Shown in pieces: positions 23,981 through 62,132 of a stretch of DNA of 63,456 nt. The translations under genes and the position numbers were made by a program. How positions within the stretch are numbered: the first letter of the stretch is position 1; each line of letters starts with the position of its first letter. The DNA is from an uncultured bacterium (GTDB lineage: Bacteria; UBP15; UBA6099; JAJRTR01): the NCBI GenBank assembly GCA_964595945.1, contig CAZQSL010000005.1:1-63456 (forward strand). The letters run 5' to 3'. The notes beneath the pieces were generated by a model. The model made no database searches, had not been told where the DNA came from, and saw only the letters and a list, made by a program, of their open reading frames with translations.

Positions 23981-24246
23981 ATCATTACTCCCTCCCGGGC
24001 CGGCTGTGCCCGTGGTTGCTTTGTGTCATTGGTGGCGTGGGCGATTTTTCCGTACCCATTATTTACTTTTCAAAACAACCCCGAGTGTAAAAAGTTCCTG
24101 TCTTTCGCAATAACACGGCGAAATCCCGCCCTTTCGCCGCACCGGCCTGTTGATAATAATCGCATGATAGGTCATATTACTTATAAATATATAAACGGGA
24201 CAGACACGAGGCTGGCAGCTTTTGGCCGGCCGGGGTGGAAATCACG

Positions 24247-26088
24247 ATGAAAGTTTTTCTGATCGGCTACTTTGGCAGCGGCAATCTCGGCGATGAACTC
24301 ATCTATGAAAGCTTCACCGCATGGCTTCGCGCCACTTTCGATAAAGTCGAGATCCGCGCACTGCGCAGCAGCGACAAAACGCAACCTCCGGCGCCTGATA
24401 TCACGGCTGTCGACAAAAATGATTTCAGGGCGATCCGCGCGGCGATAAACTGGGCAGATATCATAGTCGCTCCGGGCGGCGGTCTCGTGCAGGACTCGAC
24501 AAGTGTAAAAAGCGCACTCTTTTACCTCTCTATCGCATATCTCGCATACCGCGCTGGCAAGCCGTTTCACATGCTGTCGCAGGGGCTTGGCCCGTTTTGC
24601 CACCAGCCTGTCTCATGGCTCGCGGGCCGTATCCTCGGCAGGGCATGCCACTGCCTGCACCTGCGCGACGAGGCTGCCCTGCGTACGGCGCATGAACTCG
24701 GCCTCGATGATTCACGATTCGCACTAACTGCCGACCTCGCATTCATGAGAACCAGCGATGCCCCAAAATCGAAAAAAGCCTCCGGGACAACATTCAAAAT
24801 CGCAGTTTCGTTGCGTCCTGCCACTGGCGTAAGCCCCCTTTCCGAGGCTCTGTTCGACTGCCTCACGGCATTTGCCACCGTCAATGAAATCGAGGCGCAT
24901 GTCCTCGTGCTCGATCCCGACGAAGACTCGGCGATATGCCGCGAATTCGCCAGCCGGCTCGCCTCGTCGGGCATCAAAACATTCCTGTACCCGTCGGAGC
25001 CTACCACGCTGATTTCCCCAACCGGCACGCTCGAACTGCTCTCCGGGATGAATATCACACTCGGCATGCGCCTGCACTCACTGATACTTTCGACCATCGC
25101 CGGCACACCCTTTGTCGCATTCAGCTACGACCCCAAAGTCGGGGCGTTCGCCACCGGGTGCGACATGCCCGGCTTTACTGACCTGCCAGCCATTACTTCC
25201 GAAAAAATCCGCGAAGCCATGCGAAACGCACTGACCGAAGAGCGCATGGACAACCAGCGAAAATACACGGACTATGCCACAGAGGCCGTCCGGACTTCAC
25301 TCGAAAAATTCGCCGCATCCGCGCGCGCCGCCGCTGACAGTCCCAACGGAAAAACCCGCGTGCTCGGCGTGCCCGTATCGACTCGCGCTTTCGATGAAAC
25401 CGCCGATTTGATAGTCGCCCACGCACGCGGCAAAAAACCACTTCAGGTAGTGACAGTCAACCCGGAAATGATCATGCGGGCGCGCAGGGAACCCGAATTC
25501 CGCGCACTACTCACCGGCGGCACACTCAACACTGCTGACGGAGTCGGCATTCGCATCGCCGCCCTCGCCAAATACCGGCGCAAGATCGAAGCCGTCACGG
25601 GCGTCGAACTCGCCGAGCGGATACTCCAGATATCGAGAGCGGAAAAACTCCGGGTATTTATCATCGGCAGCAAGCCCGAAGTCATGGATAAAGCCGCAGC
25701 CATCGCCCACGCCCATCCGGCGCGCCCGATCATCGCTGGCGCGCATCACGGTTACATAAAAAACACGCCGCCCGAAAAACTCATCGCCGGGATCGCCGCC
25801 ACGCGCCCCGACATTGTCCTTGCCGGCATGGGCGTGCCGATGCAGGAGTACTGGCTCCGCGACTTTGGCGCTGCCACGGGCGCTTCAGTGCTCATCGGAG
25901 TCGGCGGCACATTCGACGCTATGGCAGGCGTCACCACCCGCGCTCCAATGTTCATGCGAAAAACCGGCATGGAATGGCTCTGGCGTCTCGCTCACGAGCC
26001 TTCGCGTATCGGCCGCATGGCCGTGTTCCCTTACTACCTGATACTCGCCATGTGCGATGCACTACTCGACCGCGGAAAAACAAAATGA
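24247..26088 (+). CDS. Fusion of CsaB-type polysaccharide pyruvyl transferase and WecB/TagA/CpsF glycosyltransferase
   Basis: N-half GYFGSGNLGDE, GGGLVQDSTS, GMRLHSLI, YDPKV; C-half from about 25357 VVTVNPE, ADGVGI, RVTG-like AVTGVEL, GMGVPMQE, GVGGTFD, EWLWRL; single open frame. Confidence 0.9.
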   Translation: MKVFLIGYFGSGNLGDELIYESFTAWLRATFDKVEIRALRSSDKTQPPAPDITAVDKNDFRAIRAAINWADIIVAPGGGLVQDSTSVKSALFYLSIAYLAYRAGKPFHMLSQGLGPFCHQPVSWLAGRILGRACHCLHLRDEAALRTAHELGLDDSRFALTADLAFMRTSDAPKSKKASGTTFKIAVSLRPATGVSPLSEALFDCLTAFATVNEIEAHVLVLDPDEDSAICREFASRLASSGIKTFLYPSEPTTLISPTGTLELLSGMNITLGMRLHSLILSTIAGTPFVAFSYDPKVGAFATGCDMPGFTDLPAITSEKIREAMRNALTEERMDNQRKYTDYATEAVRTSLEKFAASARAAADSPNGKTRVLGVPVSTRAFDETADLIVAHARGKKPLQVVTVNPEMIMRARREPEFRALLTGGTLNTADGVGIRIAALAKYRRKIEAVTGVELAERILQISRAEKLRVFIIGSKPEVMDKAAAIAHAHPARPIIAGAHHGYIKNTPPEKLIAGIAATRPDIVLAGMGVPMQEYWLRDFGAATGASVLIGVGGTFDAMAGVTTRAPMFMRKTGMEWLWRLAHEPSRIGRMAVFPYYLILAMCDALLDRGKTK

Positions 26089-26175
26089 CGAAAAGCACAA
26101 CAGCGCCATTTTGTGGCATCTGCACCTGTAAATGTGATAAAATGCTATAATGCCAACCCTGCATACGGAGGCAAA

Positions 26176-27792
26176 ATGCTCTACATAATCAAAAAACGCT
26201 GGTTCCAGGCCATCGCCCTGGTTGCACTGCTCGCCGCATTTGTCTTCGCGTCGCAGATCATCGACAACCCGCGCAAGCAGAAAACCGAAAGCGTGGTCGC
26301 GGAAATTGACGGCGTCAAGATCACAAAACTGCAATTCGAATCCGCCATGAATCGCCGTATGACACGCCTCATGGCCCTTCAGGGACAAATTTCCTCATCG
26401 GAACGCGAGGGCGTGATGCTCGCCGTAATGAAGGAACTCATCAACAACCAGTTGCTCGATTCTTTCGCAAAAAAAGAAAATGTTGCCGTCACCCCGGCTG
26501 ATCTCGCAAGAAAAAAAACCGAAATAATGGATCAGATCGAAAAACAGTATGGCGCGGAAAGCGGATCGAGAAACCCCAATGTCCCCAATCCGGAAGCTCT
26601 TTTCACCCAGATGTGGAACTTCCTCGGGTTTCGCTCCGAAGAAGAATTCATGCGTGACATCCGGTATGAGCTGCTTGAAATGAAACTTGCCGACAAGCTC
26701 TATCCCCTCAAAAGTTTCACCCTCACTGACAAGGAACTCGACGACTACATCCCGAAGCTCGCACTCAGTCAGATTTTCTACAATACCGAAACCTCGATAT
26801 ACAATCAGAAACACGCGGAACAGGGCGGCACTGGCATCCCCGGCATAGCCGAAAAGAAAGTGGAACGCATCTGGGGCGTCTACGACAAGCTTCGCGCCGG
26901 CGCCGATTTCGCCGAAATGGCAAAGCGGTATTCCGAAGACGCAAGCTCCGCCAATGGCGGCTTTATCGGCCCTGTTGCAAAAAATGCCGTCGAAAAACCA
27001 TTTTGGGACGCTGTCGCCGATCTCCAGCCCGGACAGTACACCGAACCCTTCGAGACTTCGCAGGGTCTCCATATCGTCAAGTGCCTCTCGCGGCTCGATC
27101 CCCAGACCAACGAATACCGCGCTCTGGTCCAGGCATCGCGACAGACCATTTTATACAAAAAACAGAAATCTTCCTTCGTCCAGTGGTTCTGGCGAAAATT
27201 CACCAAGATGGAACAGGAAAACAAAATCGTCCTCTATCACCCCGTACTGCTCGCCAACAAACTGCGCAACCAGGGCAAATATGACGAAGCTGTCAAACAA
27301 TACCGGCTGGCTATTTCCCGCGACCGCGACGGCGCTGCTTATTACCATCTCGACATAGCCATGATACTCGCGAGACAGGCAAAGTACGACGAAGCCATCA
27401 AGGAAATGCGCGCCGCTACCGAAACATCACCGACCGACCCGCAGCTATTCCTCGCGCTCGGCCTCGGCTACATGGAAATCGGCCAGCACGAAAACGCCCT
27501 GAAAGAATTCGAAACCGCTTCCAACATCGCCAAGCTCAACTACCAGCTCCACTACAATCTCATGGGCATCTACTCTCAGCTCGGCATGTTCGAAGAAGCC
27601 GACGCCGAAAAACAGAAATATCTCCACGCTCTCGAACTCCTCAAGGCCGGCGGCGCCGACGCGATGGCTCCCGGTTCGATGTTCAAACGCCCCAAGGCCA
27701 ATCTGCCTCCGGGCGCTGGAGCGAAGGAACCCCAGAGCATCCACGAATCCCCCGGCATCGACATTCAGGAAGTGCCGGTGCCAATGCCATAG
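26176..27792 (+). CDS. Membrane-anchored SurA/PrsA-like peptidyl-prolyl isomerase with C-terminal TPRs
   Basis: N-terminal TM helix; VAEIDGVKIT SurA_N-like; DFAEMAKRYSED...GGFIG...EPFETSQGLHIVK rotamase; about 4 TPR-like repeats. Confidence 0.85.
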   Translation: MLYIIKKRWFQAIALVALLAAFVFASQIIDNPRKQKTESVVAEIDGVKITKLQFESAMNRRMTRLMALQGQISSSEREGVMLAVMKELINNQLLDSFAKKENVAVTPADLARKKTEIMDQIEKQYGAESGSRNPNVPNPEALFTQMWNFLGFRSEEEFMRDIRYELLEMKLADKLYPLKSFTLTDKELDDYIPKLALSQIFYNTETSIYNQKHAEQGGTGIPGIAEKKVERIWGVYDKLRAGADFAEMAKRYSEDASSANGGFIGPVAKNAVEKPFWDAVADLQPGQYTEPFETSQGLHIVKCLSRLDPQTNEYRALVQASRQTILYKKQKSSFVQWFWRKFTKMEQENKIVLYHPVLLANKLRNQGKYDEAVKQYRLAISRDRDGAAYYHLDIAMILARQAKYDEAIKEMRAATETSPTDPQLFLALGLGYMEIGQHENALKEFETASNIAKLNYQLHYNLMGIYSQLGMFEEADAEKQKYLHALELLKAGGADAMAPGSMFKRPKANLPPGAGAKEPQSIHESPGIDIQEVPVPMP

Positions 27793-27815
27793 CTCAGGAG
27801 CAGCCCCACAGCGAA

Positions 27816-28568
27816 ATGAAGATCATCGTCTTCGCCGACATACACGCAAATCTCGAAGCGCTTGAGACTTTCCTCAAAAAAGCCGACCGTTCCGGCTCCG
27901 AACGCCTCTACTGCCTCGGCGACATCATCGGCTACGGACCAGACCCCAACGCTTGCGTGGAGATCATACGTTCCCGCGGTATCCAGTGCGTCACCGGCAA
28001 TCACGAAGATGTCACTCTCGGACGATGCGACCTCGATAGATTCAACCCCGACGCGCGCCGCGCCATCGCGTGGACAATCGACTCGCTTTCAGAGCAAAAT
28101 GTCATCTTTCTCAAATCCATCAGCGACTATCTCTGGATCGACTCGGCTATGGGCAAAGTCCTGCTCGTGCACGGCAGTCCCGTCAGCAAGGACGAATACA
28201 TCATTTCGGCACGTCAGGCCGAAGCCTCATTTCTCTCGATGACACAGCGCGACATCTCCCTGTGCTTCGTCGCTCACACCCACCAGCCTTGCGCATGGAT
28301 ACAGAAACCGGACGGCGAAGCATCCTTCATCCCGGTCGCCGGCTCGCGCGAAATCCAGCTCAAACGCACAGTCAAGGCCATCATCAATGTCGGCAGCATC
28401 GGACAACCCCGCGACGGCAACCCCCAGGGCTGCTATGTCGTATGGGACGATGTGAAACACACGGTGAAATTTTCCAGATTCACCTACCCATTCAAAAAAA
28501 CACAGAAAAAGATCATCGCCGCGAGCCTACCTTCCATCATCGCCAACCGGCTCGCGTACGGATTCTGA
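27816..28568 (+). CDS. Calcineurin-like metallophosphoesterase
   Basis: DIHAN, LGDIIGYG, GNHE, VHGSP, AHTH, NVGSIGQPRDG. Confidence 0.92.
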   Translation: MKIIVFADIHANLEALETFLKKADRSGSERLYCLGDIIGYGPDPNACVEIIRSRGIQCVTGNHEDVTLGRCDLDRFNPDARRAIAWTIDSLSEQNVIFLKSISDYLWIDSAMGKVLLVHGSPVSKDEYIISARQAEASFLSMTQRDISLCFVAHTHQPCAWIQKPDGEASFIPVAGSREIQLKRTVKAIINVGSIGQPRDGNPQGCYVVWDDVKHTVKFSRFTYPFKKTQKKIIAASLPSIIANRLAYGF

Positions 28569-28594
28569 CCCCACACCACCACGGAGGATACAAG

Positions 28595-29359
28595 ATGAAG
28601 CACCTCACTAAAAAAGTCACGAGCGCCATTACAGCCGCCGCCGCAATGCTCATCATCGCAGGCTGCTCACAGGCTCCACCTCCGATTTCACCATACGCAC
28701 GCGACATACCCAACGGCCGCGCCATGTCGCCCGAACGTATCGCCGACAACCTATTCGCCGCCATCAAATACAAGGACGAAGAAGGCGTATGCCGCTTCTT
28801 TTCATCCCAGGTGCCCGACAAAGTCTGCGAAGAAGTCCAGGCCATTATCGAAAAAAAAACCATAGGATGGTATCACGCAACCCCCGTGGAAAAACGCACC
28901 GACTCCGCCACCGTCAAGGTCAGCTATGAATATTCCGCGCAAAAAGCCGGCGGCGGCAAAGGCGATTTCGTCATGGCAAAATCCTCCATGACTTTCTCCC
29001 TCATACCCGAAGACGGCGTGTGGAAAATCCGTACCACCGGCATTAGGGAAATAGACGAAGCAGCCAACCAGTACCTGTTTACAAAATGCCTCAACACAGT
29101 CCTCGACGCATCCATCGGACAGGAAAAATACCGCTACCACAACGAAAAATACTCCGAAACCGTAGGCCAGCTCGTCGACCAGTACCCACCGCTCAAGGAC
29201 TCAGAGAAAATGTGCAAATCACTCCGCGTCGAAAAAGCCGAAATCGAGCAGTATGAAATCATCGGCATCGCCAACACTGTACCCCCCTGCTTCATCACCG
29301 CCGATCAGGACGGCTTCACCCCGCAAAAATACTCCGCCTGCAACGCCAGCGTGAAATGA
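28595..29359 (+). CDS. Hypothetical lipoprotein (NTF2-like domain plus pilin-head-like C-terminal domain)
   Basis: GGAGG SD; lipobox LIIAG-C24; LIPEDGVWKI NTF2-like end; QEKY...NEKY...YEIIG...CFITADQDG...C. Confidence 0.65.
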   Translation: MKHLTKKVTSAITAAAAMLIIAGCSQAPPPISPYARDIPNGRAMSPERIADNLFAAIKYKDEEGVCRFFSSQVPDKVCEEVQAIIEKKTIGWYHATPVEKRTDSATVKVSYEYSAQKAGGGKGDFVMAKSSMTFSLIPEDGVWKIRTTGIREIDEAANQYLFTKCLNTVLDASIGQEKYRYHNEKYSETVGQLVDQYPPLKDSEKMCKSLRVEKAEIEQYEIIGIANTVPPCFITADQDGFTPQKYSACNASVK

Positions 29360-31560
29360 AACATACCGGCGGCAACACACAACTACCATCCACTGCCGGT
29401 GACGCGGATATCACTATCGAATCCACCGTCCACCGCATCGTCTTTTCCAATCCGGCCAACGGATATACCGTCGCCCGGCTCATCCCATACGGCGGCGGCG
29501 ACGAATTCGTCGCCGTCGGCACCTTCCTCAACCTCACCGAAAACTCGATCATCAATGTCACCGGTCACTGGGAAACCCACCAGAAATTCGGCCGCCAGTT
29601 CAAAGTCGCCTCTTACACCGCCGATCTCCCCCGCTCAGCCATGGGCATCCGCAAATTCCTCGAATCCCGCATCAAAGGCGTCGGACAAGTCATGGCAAAA
29701 CGCATTGTCGACCACTTCGGCGAAGACACCGTCGACATCATCGACAACTCACCACAACGCCTGCGCGAAGTCGAAGGCCTCGGCGCCCACAAGATCAAAT
29801 CCATCCTCGAATCATGGCAGGAACACCGCAAATCATCTGCCATCATGATGTTCCTCCACTCCTACGGCATCGGTCCCGGCACCGCTCAGAAAATCTTCAA
29901 CACTTACGGCGACTCCGCCATCGATGTCCTCAAATCCAATCCCTACATCCTGGCGTCCGACATCTACGGCATCGGATTCAAAATCGCAGACCGCATCGCC
30001 ATGAGCCTCGGCATCGAAAAAGACTCCCCGCAACGCCTCCAGGCAGGCATTGTCTATACCGTCGAAACTTCCGGCAACGACGGTCACGTATTCCTCCCGC
30101 GCGAACTCCTTGTCGACACGGCCGCCAGCATGCTCGAATGCGACAATTCCACCGTATCCGCCACCCTCGATTCCATGCTCGCTTCCTCACAAAATCTTGT
30201 CGCCATCGACGACCGCATCTACACCGCGCGCCTCGAATACGCCGAACGCAAAATCGCCGAGCGAATCGCAAAAATCCTCACCCACATCGACGAGGAGCAC
30301 CCCCCCGTCACCTACACGCCCCAGGATGTCGACAACATCGCCACCGGCCTCGGCTTCGAGCTTTCGCCACTCCAGCTCAGCACGGTCGATCTGCTCTCCG
30401 AAGGCAAGATCGTAATACTCACCGGCGGCCCCGGCACCGGCAAAACCGCATCCACACGCGCCGTCATTCAGCTCTTTAAAAACCACGCCTACCATGTCGA
30501 ACTCGCCGCCCCCACCGGCCGCGCCGCAAAACGTATGACCGAAGCCACCGGCTGGCCCTCCCGCACCATCCACCGTCTCCTCGAATACAATCCCATCCGC
30601 AACTCTTTCCTCCGCGACGAAGACAACCCCATCGATGCCGACCTCATCGTCCTCGACGAAATGAGCATGATCGACGTCATGCTCATGTATCACCTCCTCA
30701 AAGCCGTCAAATACAATACCCGCATCCTCCTCGTCGGCGACGTCGACCAGCTCCCCTCCGTCGGCCCAGGCAACGTACTCCGCGACCTCATCGCCTCTGA
30801 AGTCATCCCCTGCGTACGCCTCGACACTGTCTACCGCCAGGGCTCGGAAAACACCATCGTCGCCAACGCACATCTCATCAACTCCGGCAAAATCCCCATC
30901 CCGGCACGCGACCGCTCCGGCGATTTTTTCTTCTTCGAAAATGACGACCCCGACTCATCTCTCGACCTCATCGTCAATCTCTGCCGCGACCGCATCCCCA
31001 ACGCATTCGGCATCGACAGCCTCACAGGCATACAGGTCATCTCTCCCATGTACCGCACCACCCTCGGCGTCGACAACCTCAACAAAGTCCTGCGCGAAAC
31101 CCTCAACCCCAAAAACCGCGACGTCCAGTGCGGCTCCTCACGCCTCTACCGCATCGACGACCGCGTCATGCAGATCAAAAACAATTACGAAAAGGAAATC
31201 TTCAACGGCGACGTCGGATTCATCCGCGATTTCAACCTCGGCGAAGGTTCCCTCACGGTCGAATTCCCAGAGCACTTCGTCAACTACTCATTCAGCGAAC
31301 TCGACCAGCTCGTCCTCGCCTACGCCATCACCGTCCACAAATCCCAGGGCAGCGAATACCCCGCCGTCGTCATCCCCATGTCGACACAGCACTTCACCAT
31401 GCTCCAGCGCAACCTGCTTTACACGGCCATCACCCGCGCATCGAAAATCGCCGTCATCGTCGGCACCCGCCGCGCTGTCGCCATCGCAGTCGGCAACAAC
31501 AAAATCGAACAGCGCTTCACATCGCTCGCCGAACGTCTTCAGGATATGACCAGGAGGTAG
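29356..31560 (+). CDS. recD2: ATP-dependent RecD2-like DNA helicase
   Basis: N-terminal OB and HhH regions, TGGPGTGKT, APTGRAAKR, DEMSM, GDVDQLPSVGPG, LAYAITVHKSQGSEY, LLYTAITRA. Confidence 0.96.
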   Translation: MKHTGGNTQLPSTAGDADITIESTVHRIVFSNPANGYTVARLIPYGGGDEFVAVGTFLNLTENSIINVTGHWETHQKFGRQFKVASYTADLPRSAMGIRKFLESRIKGVGQVMAKRIVDHFGEDTVDIIDNSPQRLREVEGLGAHKIKSILESWQEHRKSSAIMMFLHSYGIGPGTAQKIFNTYGDSAIDVLKSNPYILASDIYGIGFKIADRIAMSLGIEKDSPQRLQAGIVYTVETSGNDGHVFLPRELLVDTAASMLECDNSTVSATLDSMLASSQNLVAIDDRIYTARLEYAERKIAERIAKILTHIDEEHPPVTYTPQDVDNIATGLGFELSPLQLSTVDLLSEGKIVILTGGPGTGKTASTRAVIQLFKNHAYHVELAAPTGRAAKRMTEATGWPSRTIHRLLEYNPIRNSFLRDEDNPIDADLIVLDEMSMIDVMLMYHLLKAVKYNTRILLVGDVDQLPSVGPGNVLRDLIASEVIPCVRLDTVYRQGSENTIVANAHLINSGKIPIPARDRSGDFFFFENDDPDSSLDLIVNLCRDRIPNAFGIDSLTGIQVISPMYRTTLGVDNLNKVLRETLNPKNRDVQCGSSRLYRIDDRVMQIKNNYEKEIFNGDVGFIRDFNLGEGSLTVEFPEHFVNYSFSELDQLVLAYAITVHKSQGSEYPAVVIPMSTQHFTMLQRNLLYTAITRASKIAVIVGTRRAVAIAVGNNKIEQRFTSLAERLQDMTRR

Positions 31561-31562
31561 TA

Positions 31563-31730
31563 ATGAATACCGATCAGACAAAACTTCTCGAAATTCTCGT
31601 CTGTCCCGTCTGCCACTCGAAACTCACACTCGCCGCGGGCACCCTTCACTGCGACAAATGCCAGGCGGACTATCCCGTAATCGACGGCATCCCGGTAATG
31701 ATACCGCCATCGCGCACCCAGTCTCAATGA
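31563..31730 (+). CDS. Trm112 family protein
   Basis: LLEILVCPVCH...CDKC...YPVIDGIPVM. Confidence 0.9.
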   Translation: MNTDQTKLLEILVCPVCHSKLTLAAGTLHCDKCQADYPVIDGIPVMIPPSRTQSQ

Positions 31731-31755
31731 TCCGCCCAGGTTACTTTGAAAGGAC

Positions 31756-31784
31756 TTGACGCCCCACACCGCCCTTCCTATAAT
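31756..31784 (+). promoter_or_regulatory. Sigma70 promoter of the tRNA gene
   Basis: TTGACG-N17-TATAAT. Confidence 0.85.
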
Positions 31785-31817
31785 ATTGCAGTTAACGCGC
31801 AGCCACACCGCGCCCAC

Positions 31818-31891
31818 GGCAAGGTAGCTCAGTTGGTCAGAGCACGCGGCTCATACCCGCGGCGTCGTCGGTTCAAATCCGACCCTTGCTA
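31818..31891 (+). tRNA. tRNA-Met (CAT), probably elongator; CCA not encoded
   Basis: GGCAAGG/CCTTGCT acceptor stem, AGCTCAGTTGGTCAGAGC D-arm, CGCGG-ctCATac-CCGCG anticodon arm, GTTCAAATCC T-loop. Confidence 0.93.
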
Positions 31892-32078
31892 CTTTCACAC
31901 CATACAATGGATCATTTCTGCTTATTCATGCCTGAGTGCGAGATTAACACATACTGCGGCTTTGTATCTCAACCCATCTTGCGGCTGCCATCCCGAATAT
32001 ACTGAATATCAATAGAAATTTCCTATCGCGGCGTGCAGCGCGGTGAAGCAGTAACTTTGAGAAACCCCAAGCGTGTAA

Positions 32079-54511: not shown

Positions 54512-55960
54512 ATGAAATTTCGCAAAAGATTACGACTATTGTTTATCGGTCTTGCGGTACTGACGAATGGGCTGCTGATGCTGATAATGTATTTGTTCAT
54601 GAAAAATTCGATGTTCGCTATGATACAGAGTCAGGTAATGTCGATCGCGGCGGCTGCGGCAGTGAATCTGGATGCCGGCCTGCACGTCGAGGCAGTGAAA
54701 AACGGGCAGGAATCGGAAGAGTACGAAAAAATCTATGCGCAATTGGGAAAGATACGAAACGCTAACAGGCGCGACGATGTCTATGTGAGGTTTATCTACA
54801 CACTTGTGCCGGGCAGTGATGTGGGCAAGAAGGAAAAATTCGTGTTTGCCGTCGATGCCGAAGAGGAAAACACCGGCGATCAATCGAAACTTGGCGACGT
54901 GTTCTCCAATAGCAACCCGAAGGTAAAAATAGACAAGCCATACGTGTCGGACAAGTACGATGTGGACAAGTGGGGCGTGTGGCTGACTGCGTACTATCCC
55001 CTGAGGGACGCGCAAGGAAGGCCAGTCGCGCTGCTTGGGGTTGACGTGAGGGCGTCCGATGTGCAGAAGAAACTCGATGCGGTCCTGTACACCGGTCTCG
55101 GGTGCCTTGCGCTGAGCGTGCTGATCGCGCTCATCGTGGCTATCCGCATGGCCAACCGCGTGTCCGATCCGCTCGAAAAGATCAAGGATGCGGTCGTGAG
55201 GATAGGCAGGGGGGAATTCGGGGTCAACGTGGATATCCACACAAAGGACGAATTCGGGCAGGTCGCCGATGCGATCAATGAAATGACTCGCGGGCTCAAG
55301 GAACGCGAACTGCTCAAGACATCGCTTGCCAACTATGTCTCCGCGGAAGTGGCCAACAGCATCCTTTCGTCCGGTGCGCTCCCCACCATCACGGGCAGCC
55401 GCTGCAAGATAACTGTCCTGTTTTCTGACATAAGGAATTTTACGACACTTTCCGAGTCGCGCGAACCCGAAGAGGTCGTGGCGCTGCTCAATGAGTATTT
55501 CGAGCGCATGATCGACATAATATTCCGCCACCAGGGCATGCTCGATAAATTTATCGGCGATGGCATACTCTGCATCTTCGGCGCTCCGATCGACGATCCG
55601 CAGCAGGAACTCCATGCCGTACAGGCAGCGTTTGAGATGCAGGAGGCCGTCATCAAGCTGCGAGACAAGTGGGGGATCGAAAAATCCATCGACTTTCGCG
55701 TCGGCATCGGCATCCATACCGGGCCTGCAATCGTGGGCAACATCGGCTCGTCCGAACGCATGGAATACACGGCGATCGGTGACACGGTCAATCTCGCGTC
55801 GAGACTCGAGTCGGCTTCGAAAGACCTCAAGGCAAGCATCGTCATCAGTGACACCACGTATGAGGCGGTCAGTGACAAGTACTGTTTCGAAGAGGGTGGC
55901 TCGATCACTGTCAAGGGCAGAAATGCTCCGGTCAAGGTATACGCGGTCAATAGAAAATGA
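54512..55960 (+). CDS. Class III adenylate cyclase (TM, sensor domain, TM, HAMP, catalytic domain)
   Basis: VLFSDIRNFT, LDKFIGDG, YTAIGDTVNLASRLE; Lys and Asp specificity residues indicate ATP. Confidence 0.93.
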   Translation: MKFRKRLRLLFIGLAVLTNGLLMLIMYLFMKNSMFAMIQSQVMSIAAAAAVNLDAGLHVEAVKNGQESEEYEKIYAQLGKIRNANRRDDVYVRFIYTLVPGSDVGKKEKFVFAVDAEEENTGDQSKLGDVFSNSNPKVKIDKPYVSDKYDVDKWGVWLTAYYPLRDAQGRPVALLGVDVRASDVQKKLDAVLYTGLGCLALSVLIALIVAIRMANRVSDPLEKIKDAVVRIGRGEFGVNVDIHTKDEFGQVADAINEMTRGLKERELLKTSLANYVSAEVANSILSSGALPTITGSRCKITVLFSDIRNFTTLSESREPEEVVALLNEYFERMIDIIFRHQGMLDKFIGDGILCIFGAPIDDPQQELHAVQAAFEMQEAVIKLRDKWGIEKSIDFRVGIGIHTGPAIVGNIGSSERMEYTAIGDTVNLASRLESASKDLKASIVISDTTYEAVSDKYCFEEGGSITVKGRNAPVKVYAVNRK

Positions 55961-56404: not shown

Positions 56405-57226
56405 ATACTTCCACAATTTGATACTTATCCGCCTCTTTATTTCGGGTTTATCGGGCTGTTTGTAGGGAGTTTCCTCAATGTATGCGTGTGGAGGCTGCCC
56501 CGGGGAGAATCGATAGCTTGGCCCGGGTCGCACTGTCCGGCCTGCGGCAGCAGGCTCAGCGCAATGGAGCTTATCCCACTGGCGAGCTGGCTGTATCAGA
56601 AGCGAAGATGCAGGGCATGCGCCGCGAAGATATCGGGAAGATACCCGGCGGTGGAGATCGTGACCGGAATCGCATTTTACTATGCGTCAGTCAGCGCTGA
56701 CGGAACATTTTTGGTTTTTCTGCAAAAAGCGCTTCTGTTTTCAGGACTGATCATAGTTTTTCTGGTCGATATGGATCACATGATAATACCGGATGTGGTG
56801 ATCCTGCCGCTTGCGGTGACGGGGATGGTGATATCGGCGGCGGGTACGGTGATGCCGGGGCTGGAAGGCGTGCCGGACTGGAAAGACGCGCTGGTCACGG
56901 CAGGGATAGGGTTCGGAGTGTTTCTCGCCATAAAAGTGGGAGGCACACTGGTGGCGGGCAGAGAGGCGATGGGATTCGGAGATGTCAAATTTGCCGCGAT
57001 GCTCGGGGTTTTTCTGGGGAGGGACCTTTTTCTGGCGGGGATGTTCCTCGCTTTTCTGATCGGAGCTCTTGTTGCGATACCGCTGCTGCTCCTGAGGGGA
57101 AGGGGGATGAGAGAAAATGTGCCGTTCGGTCCCATGATGGTGGCTGGCGCGGTGGTGGCTCTCGTCGGGGGGCAGCAGTTGATCGACTGGTATGGAAGAT
57201 GGATGGGCAGATTATGGTTATATTGA
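56405..57226 (+). CDS. pilD: Prepilin peptidase / N-methyltransferase; start probably upstream of the GTG at 56486
   Basis: GSFLNVC, SHCPACG, CRAC, RYPAVE, DHMIIPD, MGFGDVK, VPFGP; the conserved GSFLNV is encoded upstream of the first GTG; in-frame ATA at 56405 behind GGAGGAGG. Confidence 0.9.
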   Translation: MLPQFDTYPPLYFGFIGLFVGSFLNVCVWRLPRGESIAWPGSHCPACGSRLSAMELIPLASWLYQKRRCRACAAKISGRYPAVEIVTGIAFYYASVSADGTFLVFLQKALLFSGLIIVFLVDMDHMIIPDVVILPLAVTGMVISAAGTVMPGLEGVPDWKDALVTAGIGFGVFLAIKVGGTLVAGREAMGFGDVKFAAMLGVFLGRDLFLAGMFLAFLIGALVAIPLLLLRGRGMRENVPFGPMMVAGAVVALVGGQQLIDWYGRWMGRLWLY

Positions 57227-57299
57227 CATATTATGGTTGGAGTCTGACGTAAAGCGGTAAATAGTCAGTAGGCAGATTGAAATTGGAAGGTGTTCAGAA

Positions 57300-57983
57300 A
57301 TGAACATTTTTAAATTGAGTGAAAAACCGAAGAACCTGATTTCGATCCGTCGGGGAGATGGCGAAAAGGGGTTCACTTTTGTCGAAGTGATGATAGCCAT
57401 GACTATCCTTGTGTCCGTGATGATAGGGATAGCGATGTCGCTGAACACGGCCATGGCGCAACTGAAGGAACTGCGGGTCAAGCGAACCGCGAACGATTGC
57501 GGCAGGGCGATCATGGAATATCTGTCTACACTGCCGCCGGATGTGGTGTATGCGGCATCGCCGGGGACTCCCATCGTGGGCGACTTCAGCACCGGCGGCA
57601 TCCTGCAACTCAAGCAGTTCGTATACGGCTCGGAGCTGGACAATATCCCGACGGCATGTATGGAAATGTCAAATCCGGCCAGCGTAGTCGGCAAACGGGT
57701 GAATATGAAATATAGTATATGCCCCGGATGCAATGCCTATACCGAAGAAGACACTACCGGCGGCGCCAACGATTATCATACGTGCAAATATACAATAAAA
57801 GTGCGGATCGAATACAACGGTTTGCACCTTGCTCGGAGTGTGGACAAACCGCACAAAATTGACTTTATGAAACAATTGTACGAAGGAAAGGCATATCCGT
57901 GTGTCGACACGGCCGGGATAGGCGTGTCGGTATGTGGGATAGGTTCGGACAACCCGGACACACCCAAAATGTGCTATTTCTAA
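57300..57983 (+). CDS. PilV-like minor pilin
   Basis: KG|FTFVEVMIAMTIL class III signal with Glu5; 8 Cys. Confidence 0.85.
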   Translation: MNIFKLSEKPKNLISIRRGDGEKGFTFVEVMIAMTILVSVMIGIAMSLNTAMAQLKELRVKRTANDCGRAIMEYLSTLPPDVVYAASPGTPIVGDFSTGGILQLKQFVYGSELDNIPTACMEMSNPASVVGKRVNMKYSICPGCNAYTEEDTTGGANDYHTCKYTIKVRIEYNGLHLARSVDKPHKIDFMKQLYEGKAYPCVDTAGIGVSVCGIGSDNPDTPKMCYF

Positions 57984-58006
57984 TCGCTCCGTATCGGGAG
58001 ACCGCG

Positions 58007-58864
58007 ATGGATGGTATAAACAATAAAAGATATGTCCGCTCACAGGCCGGATATTCGCTCGTAGAGCTCATGGTTGTGTTGTGGCTCATAGTGATAATCA
58101 CGATAGCGATTTCGCACTTGCTCACCAACACGGCCAAAATAGTCACCGATGTCTCAAGAGAAAATTTCGCCCAGAGCAGAGTCGAACAGATAGTCTCCCA
58201 GATAGCCGACGACTTCAGGTCGGCGGGGTCGGATGATTTCCGCCATATCAGCGATGGCTCGACCTCTATTTATTTCCACTTTGTGCGATACATGCAGAAC
58301 ATGGATGCCTACGCTCCAGGCAATGCGGACACGGCATACGATCTCGCCTGTTACAGATTTGTGCCTCCTTCGGACGCAAATAACCCTTTTGCCGCCAATT
58401 ATGTCCCCGGCTACATCGAAACCGGGACAACCCCCGGGGCCGGGACATCATGCGACAGCCTGACACAGGGCATGTACAAACTCACCGACAACTATACGGA
58501 TATCCGCAAATTTGAAGTGCAGTTCTGCCAGCCGGGGGCATCGGCCGGCACCTTCGACTGCTTCAACTCCATCGACAATGCGACGATCGACGATACTCCG
58601 CCAATCTACTCTCACACGGCCATGTGTGTCTGGATCGTGAAAATCAATGTGGAATACGCGAGAATCACGCCAAAAACCGGAAACTCGATGGCGCCCGACC
58701 GCTACGAAAAACTGACATCGAGGTATTCGACGGCAGTCAAGCTCCGCAATCCCTATTCCATGTCACTCTTTATCGACGAAGACAAAGACGGAATAGTCGA
58801 CTGCTGCGACGCGACATACGGAATGGCAGGCGGCACATGGTGTCCCGCGCCAGTCAGTCAATAA
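58007..58864 (+). CDS. PilW-like minor pilin
   Basis: AG|YSLVELMVVLWL with Glu5; QIADDFRSAG helix; VKLRN near the C-terminus; 8 Cys. Confidence 0.85.
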   Translation: MDGINNKRYVRSQAGYSLVELMVVLWLIVIITIAISHLLTNTAKIVTDVSRENFAQSRVEQIVSQIADDFRSAGSDDFRHISDGSTSIYFHFVRYMQNMDAYAPGNADTAYDLACYRFVPPSDANNPFAANYVPGYIETGTTPGAGTSCDSLTQGMYKLTDNYTDIRKFEVQFCQPGASAGTFDCFNSIDNATIDDTPPIYSHTAMCVWIVKINVEYARITPKTGNSMAPDRYEKLTSRYSTAVKLRNPYSMSLFIDEDKDGIVDCCDATYGMAGGTWCPAPVSQ

Positions 58865-58898
58865 GCCAACAAGAAACGAAATCATTCGGGGTGCTGGC

Positions 58899-61800
58899 AT
58901 GTTCAACAAACTGAAACAAATGATGAATGACCGCAGGGAAGGCGGCTCGATCATTGTCCTTTCGATAATGACACTCGCCATTATGTCGATGATAGGAGCC
59001 TCGTTCAGCATGATGGTGTCGAGCGAAGCCCGGTCGGTCACATCGGACTGGCTCGCGCAGCAGGCCCTTTATGCGGCCGAATCGGGGATTCAGGACGTCC
59101 TGTACCAGCGCTCCAAAAAACCCGCCCAGACATGTTTCCCCTTCTTTTACAAAGACCCTGAAATCGACGAAAAAGATACCGATACATATTCTACAGTCGG
59201 TAGTGTCAACACCGCCCTCAAGACATCGAGCGACGAAAAAGTCGTACTGCTCACCGGCGCCAGCGCAGGCATGAACGCCGATGGTGCCCCGGCCGGCAAT
59301 CCGTCCACCGACATGGACGAAGCCGGCGCCCCCGGCACGGACAAAATGGCCTGCGGCATCTATCAGCTATCAACCGACGCGCAGAGCCGCGCGGAATATC
59401 TGCCCTGCTGGCCATACAACGAAAGGCTGTACGAAAACTCGATCCAGTGGGGGCCCGACTTTCACTGCCATGACGGCTCCACCAATCCGGATTGCTCGAC
59501 ATCAGAGGAAGGCGGCGGCTGCACGGACGCCAACGACGTTTCCAACAGAGACTGCTACTCCCCGCTTTTCTGGTGGCCGGCATCTCCCGATGGCGCCCAC
59601 ATCGGATGGAAAGACGTCTATGACCGCACCGAAGACGGCACCGATATCGAACTGCCGCTCACCAGCGCCTCGGCCGGCACTGGCGCACGCTACACGACGG
59701 GTTTCTTCACCCTGTGCAACGATGACTTTTCAGGCATAGAAGCATCTATGGTCGGCTATGACAACGCCTGCACCGACGCACAGAGCGGACAGCCATGTGA
59801 CAGATACGTGACACGGCTCACGGTCGTGTCGGTAGGCGAAGTGCAAAACGGCAGCCAGGTGGTGCGCCGCGCCGTCAAGATCGACATGCAGCCGCCCGCC
59901 CTCTTCACCGGCGTTATCGACCAGTATGTCAACACCGATTTCTGGGGCGTCTCCAACATCAACGGCCCGCTCCACATTAATGGACTCAGAAACGACGGCA
60001 AATGGTATTCATTCCTCAATCTCCTCGGCGGCACGGTCGGCGCGCTTTTCGACGCGCCTGACCTCGTCAGCGTCAGCTATCCCGAAGACCCGGCCAATCC
60101 CGACTGGCAGCCAACTGTCGCGGGATTTTCGATAACTCACAAAATAACTTACGTCCATATCCCGTTCCGACTCGATCTTCCCGCCGTCAACTGGGACAAA
60201 TGGGAAGACCAGATGGCGGACCTTTACACCCAGGCTCTCGCCGAGTACAACACGACAAACGTCTATCCTCTCAAACGATGCGAATTCACCCATCCCGTGA
60301 CCTCCACTGCCAAAGACTGCGGCAGCAGCGACGGCGTCGACCACTACACTCTCAATCTCGGCACCACCGACCAGGACCGCGACGCAGCGTTTCCGGCGTT
60401 CATGTCGATGACCAAACGCTACAACACCGGCGTTGATAAAATTCACAACTTCCAGCGCTACAATTCGGACGCGCAGCAGTGGGGCGCATCAACAGCCCAT
60501 GTATTCGATCTCTTCGACCACTGGGAAGAGTATCCCTACACATGGGTCGAAGGCACGGAACCCCCGGTCATCAATGGCGGCACTGGCCCGAGGGACAGAT
60601 CGCTCCGGCCCAAAGTATCGTTCATGCTTAATCCCAACCTCGGCCTCGGCTGCCTCACGTGCGTCATCGGCGATCTCTCCATCGCCGGATTTATGTCCTG
60701 CTGCGTCGGCAAGGAGGAAAACAGACCCGAATTCGTATTCATGGGAAAACACGAATTCCGCGACTTCGTCTTCATCGACGGCATCATCGGCATCGGACAG
60801 CGAGCCCCGTGGCACACCTGCGGCGACGGCGACGGCGGACTGGGGGTGTACTGCATTGTCATTCCCAACCTCTGCCTGCTGTCATTCGGTGGATCATGCG
60901 TAATCGAAATACCGGGATTTTCATTCGGACTGCCGCACTGGCATACGGGCGCAGCTATAGTCACGGGCGAAATGCTCGTCAACGGACGCCTGCACATGGC
61001 GGACTACATACACATAGACGGCGGTACAATCTATGCCGATGGACACATAATAAAGGATGAGTCCAGCGCCTACGACATCACCATCAACCTCCAGGACCTC
61101 CTCTGCTGGCTCCTCGGTCCCATCACCACCATGACGATATCCATCCCCATATTCGGCGATCTGAGCATCAATCTCTGCGACATCATATTCGCCATCGCCG
61201 GCCCCATCATAAGCGCCATGGTCCCCTGGTGGCCAGAGATCAACCTGACCAACAGCGAACTTCTCGATTTCGAGACATACCTCGACATCGACGGCATAGG
61301 CCCATCGTACTCAAGCGGCATCATCAACCCAGGCACTCTGTACACACACGGCGACTTCCGCCTCATGACCCCCGGGTGGGACGCGACATCATTCATCGCC
61401 AACACCATCATAGGGTTACTGATACCATGGCTGAAGCTCGAATCCTCGGTCGACCCGATACGAATATACAACGGAGGCGCCATAGTCGCAGGCGGCACCA
61501 CCAGCGGCAATACGTTCCTGCACGGCAATATATATCTCGACAAACACAAGAGAGCCGACCTCCTTACATACAACCCCGAAACCGATGAAAACGACACCGG
61601 ATACGTCATAGCCCGCGGAGCCGTCAGCATCTGGAGCGACATCATCTCCCACTACGGCATGCTCGGACTGACAAACGGATGCTCGACCACTGTATTCTCA
61701 GGCGGAGGTCTCGACGAAGACTGCGCCGCAAACGGAATCTTCTACTCCGGCGGCTACGCAGCAGGAGCGACCAACAAATTTACCGCCTTCGGGCGCAGCA

Positions 61801-62132
61801 CATTATCAGTAGACCAGCCCGAAGGAAGCCTCGACAAAACCCTCGCCTCTGCGTGCGAACCCCTCCTCACGGGCAATATCATGACTGCCCCATGCTGGCT
61901 CACTGCCGTCACCGACCTGCTCACACCAGGCAACACCAACGAATACAATATCCGCGGCCACCTCTTCGCCGGAGCGGTCGGCGCAATGGCAGGCACTCAC
62001 ATCAGACTCGACCAGGACACATCAGTCAGAAACGAAGCCGTAAAACGCCAGTACTACAAGCAGCTCAGCGGCACTCCCATCAACTGGCAGGAAATCGAAC
62101 CCCCTGCCAACCTGCCACACCTCGAAGACTGA
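58899..62132 (+). CDS. Giant PilX-like minor pilin / adhesin (1077 aa)
   Basis: EGG|SIIVL without Glu5; QALYAAESGI PilX motif; LTVVSVGEV...RRAVKI strands; repeated solenoid-like motifs; terminal INWQEI; 26 Cys. Confidence 0.85.
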   Translation: MFNKLKQMMNDRREGGSIIVLSIMTLAIMSMIGASFSMMVSSEARSVTSDWLAQQALYAAESGIQDVLYQRSKKPAQTCFPFFYKDPEIDEKDTDTYSTVGSVNTALKTSSDEKVVLLTGASAGMNADGAPAGNPSTDMDEAGAPGTDKMACGIYQLSTDAQSRAEYLPCWPYNERLYENSIQWGPDFHCHDGSTNPDCSTSEEGGGCTDANDVSNRDCYSPLFWWPASPDGAHIGWKDVYDRTEDGTDIELPLTSASAGTGARYTTGFFTLCNDDFSGIEASMVGYDNACTDAQSGQPCDRYVTRLTVVSVGEVQNGSQVVRRAVKIDMQPPALFTGVIDQYVNTDFWGVSNINGPLHINGLRNDGKWYSFLNLLGGTVGALFDAPDLVSVSYPEDPANPDWQPTVAGFSITHKITYVHIPFRLDLPAVNWDKWEDQMADLYTQALAEYNTTNVYPLKRCEFTHPVTSTAKDCGSSDGVDHYTLNLGTTDQDRDAAFPAFMSMTKRYNTGVDKIHNFQRYNSDAQQWGASTAHVFDLFDHWEEYPYTWVEGTEPPVINGGTGPRDRSLRPKVSFMLNPNLGLGCLTCVIGDLSIAGFMSCCVGKEENRPEFVFMGKHEFRDFVFIDGIIGIGQRAPWHTCGDGDGGLGVYCIVIPNLCLLSFGGSCVIEIPGFSFGLPHWHTGAAIVTGEMLVNGRLHMADYIHIDGGTIYADGHIIKDESSAYDITINLQDLLCWLLGPITTMTISIPIFGDLSINLCDIIFAIAGPIISAMVPWWPEINLTNSELLDFETYLDIDGIGPSYSSGIINPGTLYTHGDFRLMTPGWDATSFIANTIIGLLIPWLKLESSVDPIRIYNGGAIVAGGTTSGNTFLHGNIYLDKHKRADLLTYNPETDENDTGYVIARGAVSIWSDIISHYGMLGLTNGCSTTVFSGGGLDEDCAANGIFYSGGYAAGATNKFTAFGRSTLSVDQPEGSLDKTLASACEPLLTGNIMTAPCWLTAVTDLLTPGNTNEYNIRGHLFAGAVGAMAGTHIRLDQDTSVRNEAVKRQYYKQLSGTPINWQEIEPPANLPHLED

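Follow-up and report, generated by a model that had tools for sequence, protein, structure and literature searches.

Why should the head of a type IV pilin be found at the end of a lipoprotein? The question is raised by a gene in a 63,456-nucleotide (nt) stretch of contig CAZQSL010000005.1 (GenBank assembly GCA_964595945.1), from an uncultured bacterium of the GTDB phylum UBP15; the whole of this stretch is called the window below. An earlier note on the window, made from its letters alone, had described the gene product as a lipoprotein with a lipobox at Cys24, an NTF2/DUF4878-like domain and a C-terminal, pilin-like head lacking the membrane helix of pilins. The open reading frame (ORF), its coordinates, the lipobox and the residue strings quoted in that note were confirmed on the sequence. 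Foldseek and VIA-align, run independently of each other on a confident AlphaFold2 model, both rank type IV pilins first for the C-terminal domain, which lacks the membrane helix, and homology to prepilins of the same phylum adds support.

In the best explanation, the product of the gene is a paralogue of a pilin head that is tethered to a membrane, does not polymerise and acts independently of the pilus; a probability of roughly 0.55 is assigned to this reading. Its structural and evolutionary part, taken alone, is highly probable; the figure for the whole is lower because the pilus-independent role is less certain.

Domain architecture and predicted structure

The gene starts with an ATG at 28595, and the N-terminus of its product reads MKHLTKKVTSAITAAAAMLIIAGC, with Cys24 inside the lipobox (Table 1). 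This segment divides into an n-region (MKHLTKK), a core (VTSAITAAAAMLI) and the tetrapeptide IAGC, which fits the lipobox pattern [LVI][ASTVI][GAS]C. In an alignment of 21 family members, Cys24 is invariant and Gly23 nearly so, and the residue that follows the lipobox cysteine (+2) is Ser, Ala, Lys or Gly, and never Asp. The host genome encodes both Lgt (PF01790, expectation value (E) 7e-61) and LspA (PF01252, E 4e-29). LolA (PF03548) was not found in the host genome assembly, which is 94.8 % complete; the three secretins of this genome indicate an outer membrane, yet there is no match to LolA.

Modelled with AlphaFold2 from the 21-member alignment, the whole protein has a predicted local distance difference test score (pLDDT) of 90.0 and a predicted template modelling score (pTM) of 0.78. 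The model has three helices and four strands in residues 46-147, and these lead directly into a 32-residue helix (151-182), after which the remainder of the head follows. In Foldseek, the N-terminal domain matches NTF2-like structures in the PDB (E 1e-4 to 2e-3, probability 1.00), namely 3hx8, 7sjy, CaMKII hubs and the NTF2 domains of PBP2a and RsgI9, with ketosteroid-isomerase-like proteins included, and it has the cone-shaped alpha+beta fold of that group. The first half of the proposed NTF2/DUF4878 assignment is thereby upheld (Foldseek E about 1e-4), and the second half is not: the query has no DUF4878 match, and a single one of the 21 members has a match, at E 0.0013, which lies below the gathering score.

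Since Foldseek matched only the NTF2 domain when given the whole model, the C-terminal domain was folded separately, with a pLDDT of 91.7. Its three best Foldseek matches in the PDB are all type IV pilins, namely Thermus PilA4 (6xxd), PilV (5v23) and PilE (4noa), and the alignment to PilA4 has a template modelling score of 0.68, a root-mean-square deviation (rmsd) of 2.3 Å and an E of 9.8e-3. VIA-align, an all-against-representatives search of the PDB that is independent of Foldseek, gives Z 11.2 for 6xxd_A, 8.3 for 4noa and 8.0 for 5v23. Type IV pilins and pseudopilins fill its 15 best rows; a non-pilin (2q74) first appears at rank 16, with Z 5.8. GspG-type heads score below the type IV pilins (EpsG Z 6.5, PulG Z 5.2), and the two ComP structures reach Z 6.3 (5hz7) and 4.4 (2nba). 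The VIA-align superposition on 6xxd covers 99 residues at an rmsd of 3.2 Å and places model residues 1-106 on pilin residues 20-119; because the match begins at pilin residue 20, the protein has alpha1-C and the head without alpha1-N.

The order of elements is that of a pilin head, with the alpha1-C helix (151-182), an alpha-beta loop containing two short helices, an antiparallel sheet and a C-terminal helix. The sheet has three strands and a short fourth bridge in the model, and alpha1-C packs on it as in the alpha/beta-roll heads of pilins. Residues 153-254 include LNTVLDASIGQEKYRYHNEKY, QYEIIGIA, CFITADQDG and the terminal Cys, and the motif is retained in homologues of 22-34 % identity. 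Cys232 and Cys249 are placed as expected for the C-terminal D-region of a pilin. The invariant residues W143, D154 and F162, together with the pTM of the whole model, suggest that the junction between the NTF2-like domain and the helix may be rigid. A complex prediction for residues 46-254 with the head of the PilA of the same genome returned a score of 0.01, which gives no verdict and counts as evidence neither way.

Features of pilins missing from the lipoprotein

According to a recent review, pilins 'invariably' bear a class III signal (PMC10191384). Neither this signal, with its Gly-1 and N-methylation motif (Pfam N_methyl, IPR012902), nor the hydrophobic alpha1-N stalk with Glu5 is present in the lipoprotein, in which the NTF2-like domain precedes helix 151-182 and the start of that helix is charged (IREIDEAANQ). 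Since Gly-1, Phe1, Glu5 and alpha1-N are all missing, there would be neither processing by PilD nor a hold in the filament core, and it follows from these defining features of pilins that the lipoprotein cannot be a filament subunit. A role as filament cap or subunit was rejected on the absence of the stalk: without the part that anchors subunits in the filament core, the pilus cap raised in the earlier note, like any other role inside the filament, is unlikely.

Homology to the pilins of the phylum

Further proteins of the phylum are matched by a profile of the lipoprotein family, in each case confined to positions 151-245; they include prepilins bearing N_methyl, with a per-genome E of about 5e-9. 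Profile-profile comparison in hhalign of the lipoprotein heads with their paralogue heads gives a probability of 99.2 % and an E of 1.5e-19 across 92 columns, the four cysteines being in register. The prepilins concerned include the pilin of the genome of the window. Canonical prepilins with the same head (for example ...KGFTLIELMIVVAIIGILASIAIPNFLKARDKAMYTKC...) match Pfam N_methyl, the prepilin paralogues scoring 26-40 bits. The combination of a non-pilin fold and no pilin profile match, which would have spoken against a pilin head, did not materialise. Pairwise BLAST between the lipoprotein and the pilin of its own genome is weak (E 0.001 over 32 residues).

The canonical pilin lies directly 3' of genes for a PilT-like protein and PilC; a second pilin comes next and, in relative G009, PilD after that. 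The genome of the window has an orthologous 171-residue prepilin at the same locus position on another contig, and this PilT-PilC-pilin position indicates that it is probably the major pilin. Its locus (G000:C82:3000-9500) encodes a response regulator, a PilT-like ATPase, PilC, the 171-residue prepilin, which carries an 8-Cys head, and a second prepilin of 143 residues. The pilus toolkit of this genome comprises 13 N_methyl ORFs, nine T2SSE ATPases, three A24 peptidases and three secretins.

A combined head profile detects 43 copies of the head in the 13 species genomes sampled from the phylum, which belong to four families of a single order; every genome has the pilin-head family, with one to six copies each. 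The genome of the window has three heads: the prepilin, a transmembrane-anchored form and the lipoprotein. Across the heads examined, the anchors are of prepilin, zinc-ribbon/transmembrane, multi-transmembrane, plain uncleaved transmembrane and second lipobox type. Cysteine counts in the head family are always even (4, 6, 8 or 10), as expected for disulfides, and the lipoprotein head has four, compared with eight in the prepilin heads of the phylum. It also lacks the alpha-beta-loop insert of those prepilin heads. A tree built from the heads places the lipoprotein heads in a single clade (support 99/99) whose long stem measures 2.29, and the nearest neighbours, weakly supported, are two 4-Cys transmembrane-anchored forms.

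Heads on non-pilin anchors were seen at loci L017, L018, L020 and L024 (genomes G001, G006 and G008), at L013, L014 and L019, and, in the genome of the window, at L021 (G000:C33:10468-10980), and the plain uncleaved transmembrane forms have no G/FTLIE motif. A second, independent lipobox-like protein (IAAC) is encoded in G006 (L022:43-1200, + strand, contig C177); in it, an 8-Cys head of the same family follows an unrelated N-terminal domain that spans about 270 residues and matches nothing in Pfam.

Distribution and conservation of the family

Scanned exhaustively by phmmer with the single query sequence, 1.84 billion protein representatives yielded a family of 17 clusters, the query and 16 others, all full-length at 237-285 residues. 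A word-indexed protein search with the query returned no match besides the query itself, and searches of Pfam, NCBIfam and PDB sequences with the query alone returned only noise. In Pfam, the query has no match to a pilin model, DUF4878 or T2SSG, and N_methyl is absent up to E 10; PDB profile searches from the 21-member and the head-only alignments retrieved no pilin. ComP_DUS (PF16732) is matched below threshold by two of the 21 members, with a best E of 0.005, and not by the query. Searches in the ESM Atlas gave leads only, namely hypothetical clusters of Acidobacteriota (about 0.9) and DUF2950, Pilin_GH, ComP_DUS and T2SSG (about 0.81-0.82). The DUF2950 lead ended there, since PF11453 matched neither the 151 genomes sampled nor the controls.

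In whole genomes, full-length homologues (25-34 % identity) are found only in the order to which the window belongs. The gene is present in 10 of the 13 species genomes of the phylum and in all four families, and these lipoprotein heads, as one clade, have a single old origin. The three remaining genomes keep a canonical pilin with this head. The phylum itself is very sparsely sampled, at 13 species genomes.

Eleven positions are invariant in the 21 members: Cys24, Pro46, Phe69, Trp143, Asp154, Phe162, Cys165, Cys207, Cys232, Pro243 and Cys249. The two domains differ in charge, the head being acidic (isoelectric point (pI) 4.1-5.4 in 19 of the 21 members, with a net charge down to -13) and the NTF2 part basic (pI >9 in 16 of the 21). 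A few family members have Lys/Pro/Ala-rich C-terminal tails.

Gene neighbourhood

The lipoprotein gene lies in a co-directional row of genes (24235-31892, + strand) with gaps of at most 27 nt. The row begins with a fusion of a CsaB-type pyruvyltransferase and a WecG glycosyltransferase, continues with a membrane-anchored SurA_N-parvulin-TPR chaperone and a metallophosphoesterase, and after the lipoprotein gene runs on through a RecD2/YrrC helicase and a Trm112-like protein to a tRNA-Met. The chaperone, encoded at 26113-27792, is PpiD/SurA-like and akin to a PpiD-YfgM fusion, with the order transmembrane segment, SurA_N, parvulin and TPR. The order chaperone, phosphoesterase, lipoprotein and RecD2 is intact at seven of nine relatives' loci; at one of the others the contig ends, and at the last the downstream gene is a different one. 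The lipoprotein, the phosphoesterase and the orthologous RecD2 are jointly missing from genomes G003, G007 and G009, and since the whole block is gone, this co-loss says nothing specific about the lipoprotein. Genome G007 has at least six RecD2-like ORFs on several contigs, with about 34 % identity to the RecD2 of the window. A scan of 23.5-32.5 kb for promoter and terminator consensus sequences gave counts not above those of shuffled sequence.

No pilus or secretion assembly genes stand beside the lipoprotein gene in the window or at the nine relatives' loci. Within the window, the closest pilus genes lie at 56.5-62.1 kb, a distance of 27 kb. This group (56486-62132, + strand), which has the same order in G009, encodes a prepilin peptidase (A24_N_bact and Peptidase_A24), two minor-pilin-like N_methyl ORFs (227 and 321 residues) and a 1077-residue protein that starts with PilX_N, these last three at 57300-62132; just 5' of the group lies a HAMP-adenylate/guanylate cyclase (54512-55960).

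Table 1. Features of the lipoprotein gene, its product and its flanking genes; positions are those of the window
Feature	Position	Strand	Evidence and remarks
Calcineurin-like metallophosphoesterase (upstream neighbour)	27816..28568	+	Syntenic in 9/9 relatives checked
Shine-Dalgarno-like GGAGG	28583..28587	+	7 nt 5' of the ATG; read off the sequence
Lipoprotein ORF, 254 residues and TGA stop	28595..29359	+	NTF2-like domain and pilin head; full-length homologues of 237-285 residues
Lipoprotein-type signal peptide, residues 1-24	28595..28666	+	Lys-rich n-region, hydrophobic core, lipobox I-A-G-C with Cys24
Tether, residues 25-45	28667..28729	+	Pro-rich; lower pLDDT (68-79); 12-21 residues across the family
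NTF2-like domain, residues 46-147	28730..29035	+	Three helices and a four-stranded curved sheet; secondary structure of the model, Foldseek
Type IV pilin head, residues 148-254	29036..29356	+	Model pLDDT 91.7, VIA-align, Foldseek, hhalign
Cys165	29087..29089	+	Invariant; in helix alpha1-C; aligns with an invariant Cys of prepilin heads
Cys207	29213..29215	+	Invariant; at the start of the first strand; putative disulfide partner of Cys165
Cys232	29288..29290	+	Invariant; before the third strand; putative D-region-like disulfide with Cys249
Cys249	29339..29341	+	Invariant; in the C-terminal helix
ATGA overlap of lipoprotein TGA stop and RecD2-like ATG start	29356..29359	+	Sequence; RecD2 domains matched
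RecD2/YrrC-type helicase (downstream neighbour)	29356..31560	+	Syntenic in 7/9 relatives; one contig ends, one differs

Proposed origin and function, and alternative explanations

In the favoured explanation, the origin from a pilin gene counts as established: in an ancestor within the phylum, the stretch of that gene encoding the head was copied, and the class III leader and hydrophobic alpha1-N stalk gave way to a lipoprotein signal and a short tether, followed by an NTF2-like domain whose end continues straight into the remaining alpha1-C helix. After export by Sec, Lgt and LspA would lipidate the protein and cleave it at Cys24. Two disulfides, C165-C207 and, in a D-region-like position, C232-C249, are predicted to staple the head, and the result would be a rigid two-domain body on the periplasmic face of a membrane, its NTF2 pedestal, mostly basic, sitting close to that membrane and its acidic head facing outward. 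The head would present a fixed binding surface outside the filament, independent of pilus polymerisation, and the lipoprotein would be one among several re-anchored pilin heads in the phylum. Its function would most likely be that of a static, non-polymerising binding module.

Several points weigh against this explanation. The absence of the gene from pilus clusters is also compatible with a role at the pilus machine, and the pilin-head family is present in all 13 genomes. The term 'binding surface' specifies no ligand. There is no Asp at +2, and LolA was not found in an assembly of 94.8 % completeness, so that neither membrane is favoured as the place of residence. Finally, the disulfide pairing and the packing of the NTF2-like domain against the helix are read from topology and from invariant residues only.

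The strongest competitor, although itself rather unlikely, is an accessory or mimic role in pilus function or secretion, which corresponds to the assembly-cofactor and decoy idea of the earlier note and in which the head would dock on a periplasmic part of the pilus machine and tune extension, retraction or stability of the fibre; the secretin vestibule, PilNOP, the minor-pilin/PilX_N complex and the fibre itself are candidate docking sites. The homology of the head to the one on the probable major pilin, in a genome with a full pilus toolkit, would suit such a role, and the concept has a precedent in Bd0109 of Bdellovibrio (PMC3818213). The gene, on the other hand, is never beside pilus genes in 10 genomes, three genomes have the canonical pilin with the head and no lipoprotein, and the lipoprotein head itself has strongly diverged (stem of 2.29, four of eight cysteines, loss of the alpha-beta-loop insert). 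A broader proposal, which is more doubtful still, is that stalk-less heads on lipid or other non-pilin anchors are a recurrent, as yet unnamed class of envelope proteins, independently arisen in several lineages, that serve as fixed pilin mimics: by binding the partners of the pilin head, they would sense or regulate the dynamics of type IV filaments without being part of the fibre; on that proposal, the design may have arisen twice in this phylum (lipobox with NTF2, and lipobox with another domain), besides the zinc-ribbon/transmembrane forms. The decoy and assembly-cofactor roles suggested in the earlier note are not supported, the gene never being inside a pilus cluster. A surface decoy or receptor mimic, soaking up pilus-specific phages or binding the pili of neighbours, is very improbable: the head does derive from a fibre subunit, and sorting to the outer membrane or surface is possible with no Asp at +2, but there is no LolA match and no sign of surface export, a head so far diverged from present pilin heads would make a poor decoy, and the slow, vertical, single-copy inheritance is not the diversification of an arms race.

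Two further alternatives deserve almost no weight. ComP binds DNA via an electropositive face and has two disulfides, and a ComP-like DNA receptor in the periplasm or at the surface, taking up DNA with the translationally coupled RecD2, could be proposed from the sub-threshold ComP_DUS matches, the four conserved cysteines and the ATGA overlap with recD2. The consistently acidic head, on which a DNA receptor was rejected, speaks against it; the ComP structures also rank low in VIA-align relative to PilA4, RecD2 is cytoplasmic, and the row includes unrelated housekeeping genes. Of the PilE/ComP pattern recognised in the earlier note, the pilin fold stands, and the ComP-like reading is weakened by the acidic head. 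The idea that the resemblance to pilins reflects a common alpha/beta arrangement, an unrelated C-terminal domain or an evolving remnant is by now largely refuted. It could draw on the lack of any Pfam, NCBIfam or PDB sequence-profile match for the query alone, on the weak BLAST alignment to the own pilin and on a best Foldseek E of only 9.8e-3. Against these stand the profile-profile match to heads bearing N_methyl leaders, a Z of 11.2 that is far above that of the first non-pilin, the invariant cysteine pattern common to prepilin heads, the retention of the gene in 10 genomes and of gene order at nine relatives' loci. A remnant or pseudogene was rejected on the conservation of the gene in 10 genomes as one clade.

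Relation to known systems

The closest counterparts of the head are the type IVa major pilins, including PilA4 of Thermus thermophilus (6xxd) and the PilA-like prepilins of the phylum, with which the lipoprotein has the head fold and the C-terminal Cys pair in common. It differs from them in having a lipobox and an NTF2-like domain in place of the class III leader, Gly-1, N-methylated Phe1, Glu5 and alpha1-N, in its location outside the pilus locus, and in having four rather than eight cysteines and no alpha-beta-loop insert. Modular type IV pilins keep the class III signal and the stalk and bear their extra module at the C-terminus; the lipoprotein resembles them in combining a pilin module with a second domain. 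With the lipoprotein subunits or anchors of type V pili (such as Mfa2/FimB), the likeness is that of a lipid-anchored, pilus-type protein; type V pilins have an unrelated fold and polymerise by strand exchange. As in the NTF2-like lipoproteins (DUF4878 and relatives), the lipobox is followed by a small NTF2-like cone, with the query below every Pfam threshold, and to our knowledge no DUF4878 protein with a pilin head has been described.

The stators of the archaellum, FlaF/FlaG (ArlF/ArlG), consist of archaellin-like domains on an uncleaved membrane anchor, are encoded in the archaellum operon and contact the S-layer. The parallel with the lipoprotein is the reuse of the fold of a filament subunit in a fixed, membrane-anchored, non-polymerising envelope protein. 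The stators differ in their beta-sandwich archaellin fold, their transmembrane anchor, their archaeal origin and their operon. Bd0109 of Bdellovibrio, a periplasmic or secreted protein with a predicted pilin-like fold, has been proposed to regulate extrusion of the type IVa pilus (PMC3818213), and is likewise a non-pilin protein with such a fold. It differs in that its pilin-like part is N-terminal and accompanied by YD repeats and in that it is no lipoprotein; no homology to the lipoprotein family was found. Literature searches for pilin-like lipoproteins found no description of a lipoprotein with a type IV pilin head, in agreement with the earlier note, which knew of no described equivalent.

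Significance

What defines a type IV pilin is its class III signal together with the stalk used in polymerisation. In this phylum, the head alone is under selection on a lipid anchor, and its persistence without the stalk suggests that a pilin head can have a function apart from fibre formation. The lipoprotein is also a natural soluble-head construct for structural and binding work, and the combination of a lipobox with a pilin head provides a concrete pattern with which other phyla can be searched. If the lipoprotein acts on the pilus machine, it would add a new type to the accessory proteins of pili; otherwise it would show clearly how a filament subunit can be taken into service as a general domain of the envelope.

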